Shown in pieces: positions 43,973 to 53,508 of a DNA stretch of 64,000 nucleotides. A program made the translations under genes and the position numbers. The notes below the pieces were generated by a model. It searched no databases. It saw nothing but the letters and a program-made list of their open reading frames with translations, and had not been told where the DNA came from. Each line of letters starts with the position of its first letter. Within the stretch, counting starts at the first letter, position 1. This DNA comes from Turneriella sp. (GTDB taxonomy: Bacteria > Spirochaetota > Leptospiria > Turneriellales > Turneriellaceae), in assembly GCA_965279515.1 (NCBI GenBank), contig CBDIID010000003.1:3264001-3328000 (forward strand), in the 5' to 3' direction.

Positions 43973-44002
43973 CCTGTGCCGAGTAGCGACGCGTATCGAG
44001 GC

Positions 44003-45022
44003 ATGGTTAGCGTCTCTTCCTATTCTGTCATTCTCGACCGCGACAAAACCATCAATGCCGACCCCGGATACCTGAACGACCCCGCTAAGGTCGCCTTGTT
44101 GCCGCGCGCTGCCGACGGTATCCGACTCTTAAACCAATTCGGTATCAGGGTTTTTGTCGCCAGCAATCAATCCGGCGTTGCCCGCGGATTGATTTCACTG
44201 ACAGAACTGGCGGCCGTGAATGCGAAAATTTCCGCTCTTTTAGCCGCCGAAGGCGCGCATGTCGAAAAGATCTACGTCTGCCCGCACGGCGACGACGATG
44301 GCTGCGATTGCCGTAAGCCTAAACCGGGCCTTGTACAGCAAATCATCGATGAATACGCGATAGATCCCGCCAGGACCTTTATCGCCGGCGACCGCGCCCG
44401 CGACCTCGAGTGTGCAATCCCCTTCGATATCCGCGGTATTTTGGTGGGCCCCGACGAAACTGTAAAACCACCCAATATGGTTTTTCACGCGGAGAACCTG
44501 CATGAGGCCGCGGCTTTCATTCTCGAGACGGTTTTCGAAGAAGAATCGCACAGCAAGGTGTTCGCAACCGCAGAAGCATTTTTACCGCAACTCGAAAAGA
44601 CCAAAAATGCCGGTAAAAAAGTCATTTTTACAAATGGTTGTTTTGATCTCGTACACAGCGGGCATGTGCAATTGCTTGCCCAGGCGCGTGCGCTCGGCGA
44701 TTACCTGGTGCTGGGATTAAACTCAGACCGCAGCGTGCGTGCGCTGAAAGGTGAGTCACGCCCCGTGAACAACGAACAAGACCGCGCCCGCATTCTTGCG
44801 CAGTTGCCGTATATCGATGCGGTCGTGATCTTCGACGAAGATACTCCGGTTGAACTCATGCAAAGACTCAAGCCCGATATCCAGGTGAAGGGCGGCGACT
44901 ATATCAAGGAAAAATTGCCGGAATACCCGGTGATGAAAGAGATGGGAAAAGAAATTGTGATTCTACCTTTCCGCAAAGGCTATTCGACGACGGGCATTCT
45001 CGCCCGCAGCCACGCTAAATAA
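44003..45022 (+). CDS. Fused heptose-1,7-bisphosphate phosphatase (GmhB) and heptose-1-phosphate adenylyltransferase (HldC/RfaE domain II)
   Basis: LDRDKT, SNQSGV and CPH...CDCRKP, then FTNGCFDLVHSGH, GLNSD and VKGGDY. Confidence 0.92.
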   Translation: MVSVSSYSVILDRDKTINADPGYLNDPAKVALLPRAADGIRLLNQFGIRVFVASNQSGVARGLISLTELAAVNAKISALLAAEGAHVEKIYVCPHGDDDGCDCRKPKPGLVQQIIDEYAIDPARTFIAGDRARDLECAIPFDIRGILVGPDETVKPPNMVFHAENLHEAAAFILETVFEEESHSKVFATAEAFLPQLEKTKNAGKKVIFTNGCFDLVHSGHVQLLAQARALGDYLVLGLNSDRSVRALKGESRPVNNEQDRARILAQLPYIDAVVIFDEDTPVELMQRLKPDIQVKGGDYIKEKLPEYPVMKEMGKEIVILPFRKGYSTTGILARSHAK

Positions 45023-46310
45023 TTTCGTCGACCGTTGCTTTCAGCTCGCCTTTCGCGAGGCGCACACGCACCTGTGAACCCTTCTCGACTTTTTTCGCAT
45101 CGGTCAGAATCTTATCGCCATCGTAAACGACAGAATAACCGCGCGACAGCGTTGCCAGCGGTGAATAAGCATCGAAGCGGCCGCCTGTGCTTTCAAATTC
45201 AGCGCGCGTCAGCTTCAGCTTTTGTGCCATCAGTACATCGAGCGGAGTGAGCTTGTTGAGAGCGTTGGCATTGCTGGTAACAATATTGCGGAAGGTGAAG
45301 CGCAGTTTCGATTCGAGCTCGTCGAGAAAGTGCGCCTGGTCTTTGACGAGCACATAGGGTTTTTCCCAGAATTCTTTTTCCGACGAACGTAAAAACCTTT
45401 CACGCAGTGTGCGCAACTGACCATCGAGCGTCGCCGCGTTGCGTTTTGCAAAACCATCCACCTTGAACAGCAGCTCTTCAACCGCGGGAAAAACCGCGCG
45501 CGCGGCATCGGTGGGTGTTGCCGCGGCATAGTCAGCGACATCGTCAGAGATCGGGTGGTCGATCTGGTGGCCGACCGCAGAGACAACGGGAATGCGGCAA
45601 GCGGCAATGATACGGCAGACGGCTTCGTCGTTGAAAGCCATCAGGTCTTCGGCCGAGCCGCCGCCGCGGCCGACAATGACGACCTCACACTGCCATTGCG
45701 GTTTTTGAATTTCTGTCAGCGCCGCAGCGATTGAAGCCGCCGCCGCCTCGCCCTGCACCTGGGCGGGTGCCAGCACGATTTCGGCATGAGGATACCGTTC
45801 CTGCACCTGTTTCAGCATATCGCGGTAGGCCGCGGTTCCGGCCCCTGTCACAATACCCACGCGTTTGGGAAGAGTTGGCAATTCACGCCGGGTCTCAGCG
45901 GTCTTTATCAATCCCTCTTTAAGAAGGCGTTCGCGGATCTGCTGCAGCTTCTGCAGAATGTCGCCCGCGCCGACCTTTTGCACGCGGCGGACCGTGAGGC
46001 TGTATGTCGATTGCGGCGCATAGATGCCCATCGAGCCGAACAGCTCGACTTCGAGGCCGGCCTTGAGCTCGAAATCCAGTGCGGTCTGGGCAAAACGGAA
46101 ATAGGTGCAACGGACGGTGGGGCGTGGGTTTGCACCCTTTTGGCTCATGTCTGAAAGCGTGATATAGATATGGCCAGAGGAGGAGTGTTTTTGGTACGAA
46201 GTAATTTCGCCGCGCACCCAGACATCCTGTAGTTCGGGCGTACTCTTGATTTTGGCTTCGATGATACGGCAGATTTCGGCGACGGAGAACTGTTGCGGCA
46301 CGGGTCGCAT
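45015..46310 (-). CDS. xseA: Exodeoxyribonuclease VII large subunit
   Basis: VWVRGEI, GRGGGSAEDL..FN, SAVGHQID, ATPTDAA and TLSRGYS motifs. Confidence 0.96.
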   Translation of the reverse strand: MRPVPQQFSVAEICRIIEAKIKSTPELQDVWVRGEITSYQKHSSSGHIYITLSDMSQKGANPRPTVRCTYFRFAQTALDFELKAGLEVELFGSMGIYAPQSTYSLTVRRVQKVGAGDILQKLQQIRERLLKEGLIKTAETRRELPTLPKRVGIVTGAGTAAYRDMLKQVQERYPHAEIVLAPAQVQGEAAAASIAAALTEIQKPQWQCEVVIVGRGGGSAEDLMAFNDEAVCRIIAACRIPVVSAVGHQIDHPISDDVADYAAATPTDAARAVFPAVEELLFKVDGFAKRNAATLDGQLRTLRERFLRSSEKEFWEKPYVLVKDQAHFLDELESKLRFTFRNIVTSNANALNKLTPLDVLMAQKLKLTRAEFESTGGRFDAYSPLATLSRGYSVVYDGDKILTDAKKVEKGSQVRVRLAKGELKATVDEII

Positions 46311-46390
46311 CGAATGCAAAATCGGATCGCAGCCGCAAAGTGAAAATCGAAAAGGGCCCGGAGATGATTGTCGCGCCTGCAAAAAATTTC

Positions 46391-48034
46391 ATGCGCGCCA
46401 TCTGTATTTGTGCGCTCGCCGCCGCGCTTTCATGCAAATCATGGGGGAAGTTCTGGGAGGTTGGCACCGTAACGATCAGTGCCTTGGGCGGGCGCAGTAC
46501 CGGGGAGTTGTGGAGCAATACACTGATTGGCAGCTCAACAAGCTCTGTAGCGCGCATTGAAATCTCCATTGCCGGCGGTGCCTGGGGCATAGCAACCGGC
46601 ACGACGTCATGGCGCTATGCGATTCCTTTTTCGGCGAATCTGAAAGTCGGCAAAAAATATGCTTTTAGTGCGCGTGCGGTAGGTAGTGACGGGTCCGTGA
46701 TCGCGACGCAATCGGGGGATTTGCTGCGTCGGGAAAATCACGATATCAACGGAGACGGCTATGCCGACTTCATCGCGGCAGCTCCGGCACGTAATACCAG
46801 CACTGGTTCGATCTATATTTATTATGGCGCTGCGGCGCCGCAATACGCGGCTTCGGGCGCCGGCGCACCAACAATCATCACTGGCGGCGGTACCCAGCGC
46901 AGCTTCGGCTCAGCCTTGGCCCTGGGTGACATCAATGGCGATGGTTACGCCGATCTGGCCGTTGGGGGCGAGCAGTATGCCTCGGGCGCATACAACGGTG
47001 CGGTGTGGATCTATTTCGGCGGCAGTAATGGCATTCCCAGCCAGGCGGCGCTGGTAACGGCGCAATATGTCGGCATCGCCGCAAACGATTATTATGGCGG
47101 CGCGGTTGCGGTGGGCGATCTCAACGGCGACGGTTACCAGGATGTTGTGGTTGGCGCGCGTGAGCGCGTCGGTTCAACGGGTGAAATTTATGCGTACCTG
47201 GGTTCATCCTCCGGCTTGTCATTAGCAACGGCAACCGTGAAAACCGGTACCGGATCTGAAAGGTTCGGTTCTTCGCTGGCGGTGGTCGATGTCAACAGCG
47301 ACGGCATGGCAGATGTCATTGTCGGCGCACCGACAGCCACCCCAACTAGTCTAGCCTATGTTTTTCACGGCATTGCTTCGGGTTTTAATACCACTGCGGC
47401 CGCCACGATCACCGGAGAGGCCGCTGACCGTTTCGGTGACGGCTTCGCCACCGGCGATTTTAACAATGATGGCTATGTGGATATAGCGGTTCAAGCGCGC
47501 GATCACAATGCGGGTCTCGCAACACAGGGGAAGGTATACTTTTTTCCGGGAAGCGCGGCAGGGTTCTCTAATTTCACAGCCAACAGCGCAACGCATCTGA
47601 ATTTTTCGGGTGAGTTAGCCGGATCAACCCTTGGGCGCAGCATACGCATTACCGATGCCAACGGTGATGGTTTTGCCGATTTGCTCTTTTCTTCTTATCT
47701 GCCGGCGTCGATTCCCGGAAAAATTTATTTTCTTCCCGGTAACGCCAGCGGCTTTAGTTCAGCGAATGCGGCAACGATTGCGCAACAAATCACCGGCATC
47801 ACCAATGGCGACGGTCTTGGTGTCTGCATGAGCGTGAAAGATATCAATGGCGACGGCTTTCCCGATCTCATCGCAGGTGCCTATAACCGAAACGCGGGTG
47901 CCGGTGGCGGGCAGGGCACGGCCAGTGTCATTTTAGGGAGTAGAGCCGGCTTTTCGAGTCCATCGTCTGCCGCGGCTGCTTTTACCCTGAATGGTGAAGC
48001 GGGGGGCGACAACTTCGGTCTTGTTGTCTATTAA
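46391..48034 (+). CDS. FG-GAP (integrin-alpha-like beta-propeller) repeat lipoprotein
   Basis: Lipobox ALSC; seven D(I/L/V/F/A)N(G/S/N)DG(Y/F/M)xD repeats. Confidence 0.9.
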   Translation: MRAICICALAAALSCKSWGKFWEVGTVTISALGGRSTGELWSNTLIGSSTSSVARIEISIAGGAWGIATGTTSWRYAIPFSANLKVGKKYAFSARAVGSDGSVIATQSGDLLRRENHDINGDGYADFIAAAPARNTSTGSIYIYYGAAAPQYAASGAGAPTIITGGGTQRSFGSALALGDINGDGYADLAVGGEQYASGAYNGAVWIYFGGSNGIPSQAALVTAQYVGIAANDYYGGAVAVGDLNGDGYQDVVVGARERVGSTGEIYAYLGSSSGLSLATATVKTGTGSERFGSSLAVVDVNSDGMADVIVGAPTATPTSLAYVFHGIASGFNTTAAATITGEAADRFGDGFATGDFNNDGYVDIAVQARDHNAGLATQGKVYFFPGSAAGFSNFTANSATHLNFSGELAGSTLGRSIRITDANGDGFADLLFSSYLPASIPGKIYFLPGNASGFSSANAATIAQQITGITNGDGLGVCMSVKDINGDGFPDLIAGAYNRNAGAGGGQGTASVILGSRAGFSSPSSAAAAFTLNGEAGGDNFGLVVY

Positions 48035-48040
48035 GGATAA

Positions 48041-50368
48041 ATGCCTAAAGCAATCTTAATCACACAATGCCTGCAGAACGACTTTGTGCGCCTGCTCGAC
48101 AGATATGATCCGCTGCCGAATTTTCTGCATATCGGTTATGACGAAGCCAACCGGCTTCTGGGCGAGCGCGTCGAAGAGGGGCCGGTCGCGCAAATCATAC
48201 GCTGGGCTTACGACCAGAAATCCGACGACCTGGGAATCATACATATCCGCGACTGGCACGACGAACACGATACCGAGCAACAAGGGCATCTGAACCAGTT
48301 CGGAAAACACAGTCTTAGGGGAACAGACGGCGCTGATTTTGTTTTTAGCAAGCAGATCAAAGAAGGTCGCCACCATGCGATCGTCGACGCGTCGGGCCTC
48401 AATGATTTTTACCAGACGGATTTAGCGGAGCATCTTAGCGATTGCAATGCTGCCGCCCTCAAAGTCGGGTTGATCGGCGTCTGGACCGAGGCTAAGATTA
48501 CGTATCTCGCCTATGAACTCCTAACCCGGTATCCTAAAATCGAACTTTCGACCTGCAGTGCGCTCACGGCGAGCTCATCCCGCAGCCAGCACTTTATTGC
48601 CCTCGATCATCTCAAAAAAATTCTCGGTGTGAAGATCTTTGATTCCGTCGCCAGCTTCGCCGAACACCTCGGCGGCGAAGGGCATGGGGTCACCCCTTCG
48701 GCTTATGCTGCCGCTAAGATGCTCGACGATGCCAAATTCCATTTTAATATTCCGTATACGCTTAAAGAAGCAGACAATAAAATATTGCATTATCTTTTCC
48801 GCGACAGTAAATCCGCCGATTTCATCTGTCTTGACGGCGGCTTTAGCGGCAACGTGGTCTTAAAGGCCGAATCGCGCGACCAGTATGACCAGAAGCAGAC
48901 GCCGACAGTCGTCAAGATCGGCGAACGCGACCCGATTTCGCGCGAACGTGCGGCATTTGAACGCGTGCAGGAAGTACTCGGTAACAGCGCACCGGCAATC
49001 GTCGATTTTGCCGAATTCGGCACGCGCGGCGGCATCAAATACCGTTACGCAGCCATGACCGATGGCAAAGTGAAGACGTTCCAGAAGTATTTTGCCGAAA
49101 GCGACGATGTGGAACTGCTCAGAAAATTTTTAAGTATCGTTTTCACCCGCCAGCTCGGGAAATTCTACGAGGCCGCGGTTCAGGAGAATCTGAATCTGCT
49201 TGAGTATTACGATTTCCGTCCCAAATATGCCGATTCGGTGAAACGTAAGTGTGCTGAACTGGCGGACCTGCAAGCCGATGGCACTCTCAAAATCACAGAG
49301 GGCTTGCACGTCGAAGACGTCGCCGCTTTTTACGCGCACGACCTGCTCACTTTGCGCGAGACCGTCGCCGTACCGCGCTACGTTTCCTGGCTGCATGGCG
49401 ACCTCAACGGCGCCAATATCATGATCGACGAGGCACATAATGTCTGGCTGATCGATTTCTTTCACACACACCGCGGCCATGCGCTGAAAGACTTAATCAA
49501 ACTCGAAAACGATATCCTGTTTATTTTTACGAAAATTGATGATGCGCATGATCTGTTTTTGGCGAAACAGGCAACAGACTGGCTGTTCGATATCCATGAT
49601 CTCGCGGTACCTCTCGGTGAGATTCCTGTTACACTGGCCGCCGATGCCCGCTTTCGGAAATCCCTGCTTGTCATTCAGTACCTGCGCGGACTTTATAAGA
49701 ATATTATCGATCTCGACCGCGACCCCTACCAGTTTTTCATCGCCGCTGCGCGTTATGCCATGCACACGCTCTCCTTCGACGAGTGCAATCTCTGGCAACG
49801 CAAATGGGCGCTCTATGCGGGAGCGACTGCGCTGGGGCGCGTACGCGCATCGCTGGCACAATCGGCGCAACTCAGAATCGATTTTATGGATCTGCAGGGC
49901 CATGCGTCGCCCCAGGGACTCATCGGGCTGACAATCTTGCCGGGTCGCAAGGACCGTGGCCGCGACCTGGCGACCGATATCGAACAATTAAAAAAATCCG
50001 GCGTCGGCGCCGTGGTGACCCTTATCAGTAATGCCGAATTTGGCGACTACGGCGTACCCGATCTGCTCGACAAATACCGCAGCGCCGGTTTCGAAGTACT
50101 GCACACGCCGATTAAAGACCAGGGTGTACCCACCGCCGATCAGGCCGATGAGCTTCTCGGCTTCATCCAGAAGAATGCGGATGCAAACCGGCGCACGGTT
50201 CTCCATTGTGTCGGCGGTCTCGGCCGCACGGGGGTTGCTGCGGCGCTGTTTCTGAAACACTTCGCAGGTATCGATGGCGATGAGGCAATTAACCGTATAC
50301 GCGCCGTCCGTTCGCCCCGTGCCGTAGAAAATCTCGATCAGGAAAATTACGTGAGAAATTATGCCTAA
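48041..50368 (+). CDS. Multidomain protein: isochorismatase/nicotinamidase-like, APH-type phosphotransferase, and dual-specificity/CDKN3-like phosphatase
   Basis: LQNDF, DWH and HSLRGT; GGFSG, VVK, HGDLNGANI and IDF; LPGRKDR and HCVGGLGRT. Confidence 0.85.
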   Translation: MPKAILITQCLQNDFVRLLDRYDPLPNFLHIGYDEANRLLGERVEEGPVAQIIRWAYDQKSDDLGIIHIRDWHDEHDTEQQGHLNQFGKHSLRGTDGADFVFSKQIKEGRHHAIVDASGLNDFYQTDLAEHLSDCNAAALKVGLIGVWTEAKITYLAYELLTRYPKIELSTCSALTASSSRSQHFIALDHLKKILGVKIFDSVASFAEHLGGEGHGVTPSAYAAAKMLDDAKFHFNIPYTLKEADNKILHYLFRDSKSADFICLDGGFSGNVVLKAESRDQYDQKQTPTVVKIGERDPISRERAAFERVQEVLGNSAPAIVDFAEFGTRGGIKYRYAAMTDGKVKTFQKYFAESDDVELLRKFLSIVFTRQLGKFYEAAVQENLNLLEYYDFRPKYADSVKRKCAELADLQADGTLKITEGLHVEDVAAFYAHDLLTLRETVAVPRYVSWLHGDLNGANIMIDEAHNVWLIDFFHTHRGHALKDLIKLENDILFIFTKIDDAHDLFLAKQATDWLFDIHDLAVPLGEIPVTLAADARFRKSLLVIQYLRGLYKNIIDLDRDPYQFFIAAARYAMHTLSFDECNLWQRKWALYAGATALGRVRASLAQSAQLRIDFMDLQGHASPQGLIGLTILPGRKDRGRDLATDIEQLKKSGVGAVVTLISNAEFGDYGVPDLLDKYRSAGFEVLHTPIKDQGVPTADQADELLGFIQKNADANRRTVLHCVGGLGRTGVAAALFLKHFAGIDGDEAINRIRAVRSPRAVENLDQENYVRNYA

Positions 50369-51206
50369 GCGCTATAAAGTCCCGAAGGGGTATCCCGGTT
50401 ATTATCCGCCGCCGCCACACATCGATCTCGCCGAGCGGTCGAAGGCAATTCTCGAACTCAAGGCGCCCGACGCCGAGCCTGAAGATCAAAAGCCGGGTCT
50501 TAAAAAACGGATCTTACTTTTTCTCGGTTCGTATATTCTGAAATACTATATTCAACTGGCATTCCGCACGTCGAAGCTACTGCTCTTCGATGTGCATCCC
50601 GATACGGAGAAGCTGCTCGCAGACCCGAAGGGGCAGTTTATCATTGCCATCTGGCATAACCGGCTGATGTATACAGTCTACAGCCTCTCAGACCATGTTG
50701 CCGGCCGCGGCCATGACATACTTGCAATTATTTCGCAATCCTCTGACGGCGAACTGATCGCCCGGGCAACGAAGATGTGGGGAGCATACACTGCACGCGG
50801 CTCATCGTCGCGCGGCGGTACATCCGCCCTGAAAAAAATTCTCCGCTACACAAAACTGCATTTTCATCCGCTCATCACTCCCGACGGGCCGCGCGGGCCT
50901 GTGTATATCGTCAAAGAGGGGTTACCGGCGATGGCGCGGTTCACCAATCTGCCGGTCGTGCCGATGTGTTATGCCGCAGAGAAAAAGTGGGTAACACGAT
51001 CGTGGGATCGCTTCATTATCCCGAAACTTTTCTCGAAGACGGTGCTCTCTTACGGGGCGCCGATCTACCTGGCGCGTGACATGCCGGTAGCCGAAGCCTG
51101 CGCGTATCTGCAAAACGCGATGATGGCGCAGGTCGATTTTGTCGAAGGGGCGCTGGCAGACCTGCTGGCCGGGAAAAAAGTCAGGTCTTTGCCGGAAAAT
51201 CCTTAA
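50361..51206 (+). CDS. DUF374 / lysophospholipid acyltransferase family protein
   Basis: IWHNR, SQSSDGE, RGSSSRGG, TPDGPRGP and SWDRF..P motifs. Confidence 0.9.
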   Translation: MPKRYKVPKGYPGYYPPPPHIDLAERSKAILELKAPDAEPEDQKPGLKKRILLFLGSYILKYYIQLAFRTSKLLLFDVHPDTEKLLADPKGQFIIAIWHNRLMYTVYSLSDHVAGRGHDILAIISQSSDGELIARATKMWGAYTARGSSSRGGTSALKKILRYTKLHFHPLITPDGPRGPVYIVKEGLPAMARFTNLPVVPMCYAAEKKWVTRSWDRFIIPKLFSKTVLSYGAPIYLARDMPVAEACAYLQNAMMAQVDFVEGALADLLAGKKVRSLPENP

Positions 51207-53508
51207 GAAAAAGCATCAGCTCGCGGAACGGCATGGGGCGGGCGAGCAAATAACCCTGCATCATGTCGCAGCCCTGTGTCTTGAGAAACTGCCGCTGCTC
51301 TTTTGTCTCTACACCCTCGGCGACCACACTCAGCCGCAGGTTGTGCGCGAGCCCGATGATCGTGCGCACAATGGCCGCGTCATCCGGATCATCTTCGACG
51401 TCGCGCACAAACGATTGGTCGATTTTCAGGTAATGGATCTTGAGCTGGCGCAGGTAACTCAGCGATGAATAACCGGTGCCGAAATCGTCGATAGAAAATT
51501 TTACACCGATTTCAGAAAGCTGTCTGATGGCCTTGCGCGACTTTTGTGTGTCTTGCATGATCATACTCTCGGTCACTTCGAGTTCCAGGCGATTCGGCGG
51601 GAAGCCATGCCGCAGAATCACTTCTTCGACACTGGCAGCAAAATCCGTACTCTGTATCTGCCGGGCGCTGGCGTTTACAGAAACGCGCAGATCGCCGTAG
51701 CCGTGTTCCTTTAGGAGGTTAAAGTCGCGGGCAACCTGATTTAAAACCCACATGCCAATCTCGATGATCTGGCCCGACTCTTCAGCGATCGGAATGAACT
51801 TACAGGGAGAAATCTGGCCCAGGCCCGGGCGGTTCCAGCGTAATAGGGCTTCGCACGATTCTATCTTGCCATTTTTAAAATTCAGCTGCGGCTGGTAGTG
51901 GACTTCGAGCTCGCCCCTGTGAATCGCTTCGCGCAGCGCTGCATCGAGTTCGATACGCTCATGCGTGACACGGTTCAGTTCGTCAGAGAAATACTGGAAC
52001 TGGTTGCGGCCGCTTGCCTTCGCGTGGTACATCGCGATGTCGGCATTTTTCAGCAGTGTCTCGGCCTCTTTGCCGTCGCGCGGAAATACAGCAATGCCTA
52101 TGCTGGCGCTGGCGTTTACCCTAAAACCATCTATCTCCATGGGCTCAGAAATCTTGTGGCATATTTTCTGCGCCAGCGATGCCGCTTCTTCTGGCCGGGT
52201 GTCTTCGGGCAGCAGAATGATAAATTCATCGCCGCCGCGACGGGAAACAGTGTCGATTGCCGTAACCGAACTCCGGAGTATTTCGCCGATCCTCTTCAGG
52301 AATAAATCGCCGCGGTGGTGACCCAATGAGTCGTTGATTTTCTTGAAGTGATCGATATCGAGGAATAAAAGCGCAAAGGCGGATTGATGGGCTTCGGCAA
52401 AGGCGATCGCCTGGTGCAGCCGGTCGCCGAACAAGCCACGGTTGGGTAATCCCGTCAGCGCATCATGCTGGCCGAGATAGTGGATCTCCGCCTCTGCTTC
52501 GGCGCGCTGTAGTTCAGCCGAGGCACGCGCCGCAAAAATCTCGAGAATCGTGCGGTTCACCTCTGCATGCCGCGGCGAATTTTCATGCAGAACGCGTATG
52601 GTGCCGATCTCCGCCGCATTCTTATCGAGTAAGGGTATGCCAAAATGGTTGCGCACATGCGAAAAGTGACCTGGCAAGCCCCGGGGTATTTCATCGCCCG
52701 CAAACCTGAAGTTTTCCGTGATTTCGCCGTCGGCCCAGACTGCGAGCGTCTCAAATTCCCGGTTCTCCGCTTTTACGCGTCTGCCGATGATGGCCGATTT
52801 AGCGTCAAACATATGCGCCAGTTCGCGAACAAAAGATTGGAAAAACTCATCCCCTGTGCCGGTAGTGCCCGCCGCGATGCGCGAAAGCAGCGTTTCCTTC
52901 CGTTTCAGATCGAGCAAGGAAAGAATGACCTGCGCGCTGACCGCGAGAAAAAAGACCAGGATGCCGATATGTATTGCCTGGACGTCCTCCTGCGGAGTGC
53001 GCATCGCCCGCAAAATGTCCCAAATTCCGGTGATACCCATGACGCTGCCGCCGAGAATGATCGTGAGATTTTCCCGGTGGTTTCGAATCGTTGGGACTAA
53101 CATGGCCATCCACAGGCCGATTGCCACGAGCAGGCTCAGCTGAAAGAGGCGCAGCACGGATTCGAGCGAATGTGACCAGAATAGAATATAACAGGAAGCC
53201 GCAATGGTGATCACGGCGAAGTACTGCGCTATGCGCTTCAGGAAATTCCGGTAACCACCGTCAAAGATTCTGTTGAAATACAGCGACAAACCCAAAGGCA
53301 TGATATAAAAGGAGATGAGTTCCAGCTGCCGCCACGACCCGCTGTAAATTACCGTATGAGCCGGCGTGACACTCAGGCTCCAAATACCAATCGCAACCGA
53401 GAACAGTGAATAATAAAACACGAGAGGTCTGAATCGCCCGATCGCAATTAAAACAAAACCTGCGAAACCCGAGGCGACATAAATAATTGACGTGACTAAA
53501 ATTTCCAC
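51181..53508 (-). CDS. Membrane-bound GGDEF-EAL protein with a GAF-like domain
   Basis: Multi-TM N-terminus; HDALTGLPNR, GGDEF, EALLRW, DDFGTGYSS and AEGVE motifs. Confidence 0.95.
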   Translation of the reverse strand: MEILVTSIIYVASGFAGFVLIAIGRFRPLVFYYSLFSVAIGIWSLSVTPAHTVIYSGSWRQLELISFYIMPLGLSLYFNRIFDGGYRNFLKRIAQYFAVITIAASCYILFWSHSLESVLRLFQLSLLVAIGLWMAMLVPTIRNHRENLTIILGGSVMGITGIWDILRAMRTPQEDVQAIHIGILVFFLAVSAQVILSLLDLKRKETLLSRIAAGTTGTGDEFFQSFVRELAHMFDAKSAIIGRRVKAENREFETLAVWADGEITENFRFAGDEIPRGLPGHFSHVRNHFGIPLLDKNAAEIGTIRVLHENSPRHAEVNRTILEIFAARASAELQRAEAEAEIHYLGQHDALTGLPNRGLFGDRLHQAIAFAEAHQSAFALLFLDIDHFKKINDSLGHHRGDLFLKRIGEILRSSVTAIDTVSRRGGDEFIILLPEDTRPEEAASLAQKICHKISEPMEIDGFRVNASASIGIAVFPRDGKEAETLLKNADIAMYHAKASGRNQFQYFSDELNRVTHERIELDAALREAIHRGELEVHYQPQLNFKNGKIESCEALLRWNRPGLGQISPCKFIPIAEESGQIIEIGMWVLNQVARDFNLLKEHGYGDLRVSVNASARQIQSTDFAASVEEVILRHGFPPNRLELEVTESMIMQDTQKSRKAIRQLSEIGVKFSIDDFGTGYSSLSYLRQLKIHYLKIDQSFVRDVEDDPDDAAIVRTIIGLAHNLRLSVVAEGVETKEQRQFLKTQGCDMMQGYLLARPMPFRELMLFLKDFPAKT

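Follow-up and report, generated by a model that had tools for sequence, protein, structure and literature searches.

In EntB and PhzD, the isochorismatase-like hydrolase fold functions without a cysteine nucleophile and is not known to have a metal site. The nicotinamidase (PncA) SpNic has a catalytic triad of Asp9, Lys103 and Cys136 and a metal held by Asp53, His55, Glu64 and His71; its substrate reaches the metal through the pyridine nitrogen, and Lys103 also bonds the metal ligand Asp53 (PMC6271260). APH-type kinases of the sort treated here likely act on low-molecular-weight substrates (Kaur et al., PMC7159879), and an association of the kinase family TCAD9 with vWA-MoxR-VMAP conflict systems has been listed (PMC10910872). 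Here we describe a gene of the spirochaete Turneriella sp. that joins a PncA-like domain, a TCAD9/APH-type kinase and a CDKN3/KAP-like phosphatase in one chain of 775 amino acids (aa). It lies in a 64,000-nucleotide stretch of contig CBDIID010000003.1 (assembly GCA_965279515.1, positions 3,264,001 to 3,328,000), which as a whole is referred to as the window. Judged from alignments, all three canonical triad residues of the PncA-like domain are replaced and the four metal ligands are kept, and the conserved residues suggest that the domain probably senses or processes a breakdown product of nicotinamide adenine dinucleotide (NAD) instead of carrying out the textbook reaction. Full-text literature searches returned no study on the fusion or the residue pattern, although Burroughs and Aravind 2023 or its supplements, which lay outside those searches, may describe the architecture; two supplementary files of PMC7159879 mention no isochorismatase, TCAD9 or CDKN3.

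The gene, its domains and the triad codons lie at the following window positions:
48041..50368, + strand: three-domain fusion open reading frame (ORF), 775 aa, with an ATG start and no stop inside the frame
48041..48676, + strand: PncA/isochorismatase-fold domain, aa 1-212 (VIA-align match to 5zn8, alignments, conservation)
48068..48070, + strand: codon of Cys10, at the catalytic Asp site (alignment to canonical relatives; 3o94 structural range)
48389..48391, + strand: codon of Ala117, at the catalytic Lys site (HMMER and end-to-end alignments)
48494..48496, + strand: codon of Lys152, at the nucleophile Cys site (HMMER and end-to-end alignments)
48746..49858, + strand: TCAD9/APH-type kinase, aa about 236-606 (Pfam TCAD9; catalytic residues)
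49865..50365, + strand: CDKN3/KAP-like cysteine phosphatase, aa about 609-775 (Pfam CDKN3; VIA-align match to KAP)

The PncA-like domain and its fusion partners

A VIA-align structure search of the N-terminal model against 48,161 chains returned B. subtilis PncA (5zn8) as the best match (Z 22.4, root-mean-square deviation (rmsd) 2.0 Å, 177 residues aligned); isochorismatase-like hydrolase folds took ranks 1-28, and the next match had a Z of 8.5. The Pfam scan of the ORF matched TCAD9 (E 1.8e-53), CDKN3 (E 1.2e-18), APH (E 6.9e-6) and Isochorismatase (E 1.5e-5), the last weakly, over residues 49-194 and at 25.6 bits, below the 27-bit cut-off. In the AlphaFold2 model of the whole chain the mean predicted local distance difference test score is 94.8 and the predicted template modelling score is 0.91, which suggests a fixed domain arrangement. 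The first-pass annotation had read the gene as an amidase, an APH-like kinase and a CX5R phosphatase in one chain; this architecture is real and conserved, and all the motifs cited for it are present.

The motifs of the PncA-like domain are CLQNDF (C10), DWH (D71 and H73) and GVWTEAKI (K152). In an end-to-end alignment with one PncA and the four nearest canonical relatives, which were taken from planctomycete-group genomes, C10, A117 and K152 fall in the Asp, Lys and Cys columns, and F15, D71, H73, H90 and G146 are identical in the canonical and variant rows. HMMER alignments to the PDB chains 3hb7 and 3s2s place K152 and A117 in the same way, and those to 3eef and 1ilw so place K152. C10 corresponds to SpNic Asp9 by the 3o94 structural range, provided that the first strand is ungapped. 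Alignment to solved chains makes H83 the fourth metal ligand, and V147-W148, preceded by G146, align in sequence with the cis-peptide pair. Pocket positions were mapped via the OiNIC residue list (PMC3581539), and the convergence of C10 and K152 was judged from backbone equivalence. Profile comparison with single canonical sequences gave a probability of just 5-7%. Cys at the Asp site and Lys at the Cys site, as first proposed, are thus borne out by the end-to-end and PDB-chain alignments, in which the change of Lys to Ala117 is a third replaced triad site that had been overlooked.

A homologue search yielded 1,213 proteins among 7,996 scored candidates, the closest genus-named homologues being Turneriella. 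The best 120 were aligned as close homologues, one of them without the N-terminus. C10, K152 and the four ligands D71, H73, H83 and H90 each occur in 119/119, so that Cys10 and Lys152 are not chance changes and the PncA-like metal ligands are indeed kept. For breadth, 382 proteins were pooled, 293 of which span the domain, and reduced to 143 representatives at 70% identity from bacteria, Asgard archaea and amoebae; later counts use 138 after five fragments were dropped. Among the 143, Asp never occurs at site 10, Lys never at site 117 and Cys never at site 152. Lys is present at site 152 in 135 and Cys at site 10 in 118, and site 117 holds Ala, Ser, Gly, Thr, Cys or Ile. One divergent protein outside the representatives (P0243) has Asp at site 10 and Met at site 152. 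The four-ligand metal site is intact in 130 of the 138 domains, and Lys152 is kept in 128 of these 130 versus 2 of the 8 without it (both 128, neither 6, discordant 2 and 2, with related copies not independent). Because Lys152 is retained with an intact metal site and mostly lost without one, the comparison supports selection, not decay, as the source of the triad replacements.

At site 10, the 128 intact domains (metal site plus Lys152) have Cys in 112, Ser in 15 and Thr in one. On a FastTree tree built without the columns of sites 10 and 152, the 16 of 138 domains with Ser at site 10 are spread over 10 clades, of which nine consist of one sequence each; support at the parent nodes runs from 0.51 to 0.98. 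The control cysteine C172 is Ser in 8/128 intact domains, and this similar exchange means that Cys/Ser exchange alone does not identify a nucleophile. Of the earlier claim that the catalytic residues are swapped and not simply lost, a conserved and selected replacement therefore stands, whereas swapped catalysis stays putative, Ser10 in 10 clades being odd for a thiolate nucleophile. The pocket columns D14, Q12, H90, H73, K152 and D71 are among the most conserved (94-100%). Position 91, right after the metal ligand His90, is Ser in the fusion protein (48311-48313) and Cys in 118/119 close homologues, a rare private change.

The kinase scores 182.7 bits against TCAD9 (PF19974; curated cut-off 40) and carries a GGFSG loop, VVK (K292), E302, HGDLNGAN (H452-G-D454, N459) and IDF (D472); K292, E302, D454, N459 and D472 occur in 120/120 close homologues. 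Its Atlas neighbours are TCAD9/APH clusters. Foldseek matches to maltokinase (4u94) and choline kinase (1nw1) are weak, with an rmsd of 8-11 Å, and the kinase domain had no match among the 50 matches listed in either VIA-align search of the full model. The phosphatase carries HCVGGLGR (C723-X5-R729), D693 as general acid and a basic TILPGRxDRxR loop, with D693, C723 and R729 in 120/120 close homologues; among solved structures it best matches KAP, a protein phosphatase (1fpz; VIA-align Z 25.6, rmsd 1.6 Å).

The family ranges in bacteria over Leptospirales, Bacteroidota, phyla of the PVC (Planctomycetes, Verrucomicrobia, Chlamydiae) group and Elusimicrobiota. The variant domain stands alone in Hermod-, Hel-, Hod- and Lokiarchaeota (Asgard) and in planctomycetes, and copies occur in the amoeboid eukaryotes Naegleria, Willaertia, Luapelamoeba and Flabellula. 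Its distribution is patchy: 23/201 genomes of the host phylum, 28/61 in the class sample, 21/301 around the planctomycete centre at E up to 1e-15 (including three genomes matching via a canonical relative only) and 1/301 around the Bacteroidota centre. Among 85 long proteins, 56 have kinase and phosphatase (7 without the catalytic Cys), 27 have the kinase only, some of which may end at contig ends, and 2 have neither. On these sequences the conserved core is the PncA-like domain plus kinase, and the phosphatase is optional. The variant domain is also found behind Ser/Thr kinases and, in a single example of 438 aa (L120:56-1369), behind a TIR domain. The proposal that opposing kinase and phosphatase form a self-contained switch is accordingly weakened by the 27 long homologues without a detectable phosphatase and the 7 more without its Cys, and further by the stand-alone, TIR-fused and Ser/Thr-kinase-fused versions. 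In the assemblies, stops or frameshifts divide or truncate several homologues, often ahead of the phosphatase (L063, L066, L073; G142, G085, G162), which may be real loss or sequencing error.

Sensor, hydrolase and other readings

We favour, tentatively, a reading in which the N-terminal domain is a pyridine-binding (pyridine-carboxylate) sensor that controls a metabolite kinase. A former nicotinamidase of the Bacillus/Streptococcus type would have been turned into a ligand-binding sensor, and the retained four-ligand metal site, which in PncA holds the pyridine nitrogen, would by its conserved residues bind in the same manner here. With the Asp and the old Lys removed and a Lys placed at the nucleophile site, the net charge of the triad would change from 0 to +1 beside the oxyanion hole, and the more positive pocket would suit an anion such as nicotinate, not amide hydrolysis. 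The long Lys152 probably extends into the space vacated by the change to Ala117 and, as SpNic Lys103 bonds the metal ligand Asp53, could there keep the job of that lysine. Ligand binding would control the tightly packed APH-type kinase, which would phosphorylate a small NAD(P)-related metabolite, and the optional phosphatase would remove that phosphate. The sensor is favoured because Ser is tolerated at site 10, because one domain is fused to several outputs (TCAD9 kinase, Ser/Thr kinase and TIR) and because no salvage partner is found. In TrtA, a Cys-to-Ser change at the normal nucleophile site is inactivating (PMC7948467), which also speaks for a sensor. So do the joint retention or loss of Lys152 and the metal site, the NAD(P)-related neighbours and the canonical PncA close to a variant copy described below, and the fixed domain arrangement suggested by the model.

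With regard to salvage, the host genome gave no second PF00857 match, and no nicotinate/nicotinamide phosphoribosyltransferase, neither PncB nor NadV, was found with three models, which detected controls in 8, 11 and 8 of 14 genomes; NadA is present. Nicotinate would thus have no known onward salvage step in the host. PncB and NadV were likewise not found in 27 of the 28 carriers in the 61-genome class sample. We also considered the fusion as a stand-in for a missing PncA; this is weakened in that no PncB was found in the host, and by a canonical PncA about 4 kb from the stand-alone variant in one genome (G298), and a similar strong match lies nearby in another (G519).

Neighbourhoods were surveyed at 125 loci using 13 neighbour proteins, taken from those loci, as queries. 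Most are lineage-specific housekeeping genes, and NAD(P)-related genes were found at 18/125 loci: an SPFH gene with a NAD-kinase-like gene at 6 (directly upstream of the family gene in L033 and L039), NadE with NadM/Nudix, ADP-ribosylglycohydrolase and Macro at 1, NadE with NrtR at 3 planctomycete loci (PncB confirmed in two), NadA at 3 and a GapN-like dehydrogenase at 5. These neighbours are descriptive, as several loci are kin and perhaps about six to eight contexts are independent. The NAD-kinase-like protein resembles human mitochondrial NADK2 (E 9e-12) and has no Pfam match at 1e-3. Its gene occurs in 15/61 class genomes, 14 of which also carry a fusion-family protein, versus 28/61 overall; in genus g3 the same 6/14 genomes have both, unlinked where coordinates show. 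The link to NAD or nicotinamide metabolism proposed at first thereby gains moderate support from the neighbours and this co-occurrence. The pair of SPFH/Band-7 and NAD-kinase-like genes is itself conserved (L175, G000:C3:2986948-2988950; L033:3782-5995; L072:1017-2961), may represent a separate, uncharacterised module and lies in the host about 325 kb from the fusion gene.

Further arrangements were seen at single loci or small groups of loci. In archaeal-like metagenome sequences of about 30% GC (guanine plus cytosine) content (L111-L115, L135), the stand-alone variant directly follows a WD40-repeat gene of ~790 aa, the C-terminal half of which has no Pfam match, and NadA follows the stand-alone variant in L113, L118 and L119. 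In L072:2974-5963, the NrtR-SPFH-NAD-kinase-like genes are separated from the fusion by two ORFs without annotation and a divergent gene resembling adenylosuccinate synthetase. A gene of the eIF2B/MtnA family lies directly upstream of the fusion at one locus (L141:1775-2854); methylthioribose kinase is an APH-type kinase.

Several observations weigh against the sensor and its NAD(P) setting. Structure matches of the kinase to small-molecule kinases are weak, and its sequence profiles match generic kinase motifs only. No NAD query matched at 107/125 loci, that of the window included, although the queries were derived from the loci themselves. Fourteen carriers have no NAD-kinase-like gene, and in genus g5 the fusion-family protein is present in 11/14 genomes and the NAD-kinase-like gene in none. 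PncB and NadV were also not found in 31/33 non-carriers, with the Pfam models detecting just 8/14 controls. Stand-alone copies in Asgard archaea and planctomycetes have no output domain, and the thiol or hydroxyl at site 10 in 128/128 intact domains would fit a nucleophile equally well.

This last point belongs to a rewired hydrolase, a somewhat less probable but still serious possibility, in which Cys10 or Ser would be the nucleophile and Lys152 the base of a dyad whose substrate would be an amide or ester derived from NAD, the kinase and phosphatase performing neighbouring steps of one small pathway. Site 10 is confined to Cys, Ser or Thr, whereas Ala, Gly, Phe or Asp can stand at the two control cysteines (7/8 substitutions at C91, 2/10 at C172). 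The triad of the family is triangular, so that roles could permute (PMC7948467), and a quantum mechanics/molecular mechanics model of SpNic has a hydrogen bond between Asp9 and Cys136, so that the two sites neighbour each other (PMC6271260). G146 before the cis-peptide position is invariant (138/138), 110/128 intact domains have gained an acidic residue, D122, and the stand-alone copies are also as expected of an enzyme. Yet a nucleophile would not usually switch between Cys and Ser so often, and control C172 does so at a similar rate. The side chain of Lys152, placed where the nucleophile used to be, may encroach on the acyl position, and no downstream PncB is found in the host. It is slightly more doubtful that an active Cys/Ser-Lys dyad, conserved from bacteria to Asgard archaea and amoebae, forms with the fused kinase and phosphatase an unrecognised route by which organisms without PncB and NadV handle the products of NAD breakdown.

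We consider it unlikely that the protein is a conflict switch, in which kinase and phosphatase would have a protein, or the fusion, as their target, with the PncA-like domain reporting NAD loss during attack. The listed association of TCAD9 with conflict systems points that way, as do the TIR fusion, the likeness of the phosphatase to a protein phosphatase, the patchy distribution in the class and the planctomycete copies that adjoin STAND/TPR/cyclase, NACHT, dynamin-like, HSP70 and ThiF genes. Against it, PADLOC 2.0.0, the library of which covers systems described by 2023, matched 0 families at E up to 0.1, and viral contigs, phages and plasmids gave no match to the fusion family. Identity of about 50% across phyla would be unlike fast-evolving effectors, kinases of this sort likely take small substrates (PMC7159879), and the spirochaete copies sit among housekeeping genes. 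No linked MoxR, vWA or VMAP gene is present among the scanned window neighbours, and a MoxR gene was seen at 6/80 related loci. A biological-conflict role, suggested at first together with a survey for defence genes, finds an echo only in some planctomycete neighbourhoods. A mobile or phage-borne element is likewise unsupported, given the lack of phage, plasmid and viral-contig matches and a GC content of the fusion ORF (0.53) that resembles that of the window. At five loci (L149:5551-7848, L151, L152, L132, L134) the stand-alone variant immediately follows a ~500-560-aa HSP70-like gene, which L134 is too short to show. Unknown ORFs come after the variant at these loci, followed by a ThiF-family gene in L149, L151 and L152; at three planctomycete loci the variant adjoins NadE-NrtR. 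These genes are possibly an undescribed conflict or NAD operon.

Lys-Cys redox bridges and the trapping of aldehydes by PncA are known, and Lys152 could itself be reactive, forming a Schiff base with an aldehyde (e.g., a pyridine aldehyde or triose phosphate) or a redox-sensitive link with Cys10. This we regard as improbable. Lys152 is stricter than Cys10 (135 vs. 118 of 143), and at 5 loci in three phyla the downstream genes include a GapN-like NADP-dependent aldehyde dehydrogenase, adjacent or nearly so in four. However, Ser at site 10 rules out a Cys-Lys bridge in 16 domains, 120/125 loci have no GapN-like gene, and the GapN-like neighbours share 64-71% identity with the query copy and may stem from a single transferred block. 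Least credible of all is a dead pseudoenzyme serving as a structural scaffold for the kinase, since, even with all three triad residues non-canonical and several copies (including those of Naegleria and Willaertia) having lost Lys152 and the metal ligands with kinase motifs intact, the pocket columns rank with the best conserved, the site is unchanged in stand-alone copies, and the decayed copies show a pattern of loss that the majority of copies do not share.

If the sensor reading is true, the domain would represent a new type of module for sensing nicotinate/nicotinamide, coupled to kinases and a TIR domain and found across three domains of life; should the permuted triad prove to work, it would offer a clear natural example of catalytic residues trading places within one fold. 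Database labels of 'isochorismatase' or 'dual specificity phosphatase' on more than 1,000 homologues hide the variant. The Leptospirales carriers appear to be without standard nicotinamide salvage, so that the protein draws attention to a missing piece of their NAD(P) biology.

Surroundings of the gene in the window

Pfam-scanned neighbours of the fusion gene encode an FG-GAP protein, DUF374, exonuclease VII, a HAD/cytidylyltransferase protein and a GGDEF-EAL protein. Two of them are placed as follows:
46340..48034, + strand: FG-GAP repeat protein with 7 stretches matched by Pfam, encoded 6 bases ahead of the fusion ORF
43976..45022, + strand: HAD phosphatase and cytidylyltransferase-like domain in one 348-aa protein (Pfam; close relatives have it too)

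The fusion ORF overlaps the DUF374 gene by 8 bases. L002, the closest relative, is alone in having an ORF of similar size to the FG-GAP gene ahead of the fusion, and a conserved operon is ruled out by flanking genes that differ even between close relatives. The HAD/cytidylyltransferase fusion is, we presume, GmhB/HldE-like. Promoter and terminator scans of positions 46000-51400 stayed at chance level (3 against 3.6 and 7 against 6.0).

Comparison with known systems

The variant shares the fold of PncA of the Bacillus/Streptococcus type (5zn8, 3o90-3o94, 3s2s; PF00857), and its metal ligands D71, H73, H/E83 and H90 equal SpNic D53, H55, E64 and H71. Pocket F15 and F87, the glycine before the cis-peptide and the C-terminal His motif are also common to both. 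Unlike PncA, the variant has Cys/Ser for the Asp, Ala/Ser for the Lys and Lys for the Cys, Leu120 for the pocket Tyr, an extra PNxLHxG..E..R segment, a fused kinase and a Pfam score below cut-off. As the Asp-Lys-Cys triad is absent, the variant ought not to be classed with the nicotinamidases. The isochorismatases EntB and PhzD share the fold (Z about 17.8) and retain the Asp, the structure matches including an entry for the D38A mutant of PhzD, whereas in the variant the Asp is gone and a metal site is kept.

The fusion kinase has the HGDLNxxN and DF motifs of the TCAD9 (PF19974)/APH-choline kinase-maltokinase group, but in contrast to TCAD9 systems it has no adjoining vWA-MoxR-VMAP genes and sits behind a PncA-like domain. 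The phosphatase retains the CX5R motif and general-acid Asp that are intact in CDKN3/KAP and the archaeal protein tyrosine phosphatases SsoPTP and Tk-PTP. It differs from these in being bacterial, fused, about 30% identical and absent or inactive in many homologues, and in its additional arginines, R636 and R641 being invariant and R639 present in 119/120.

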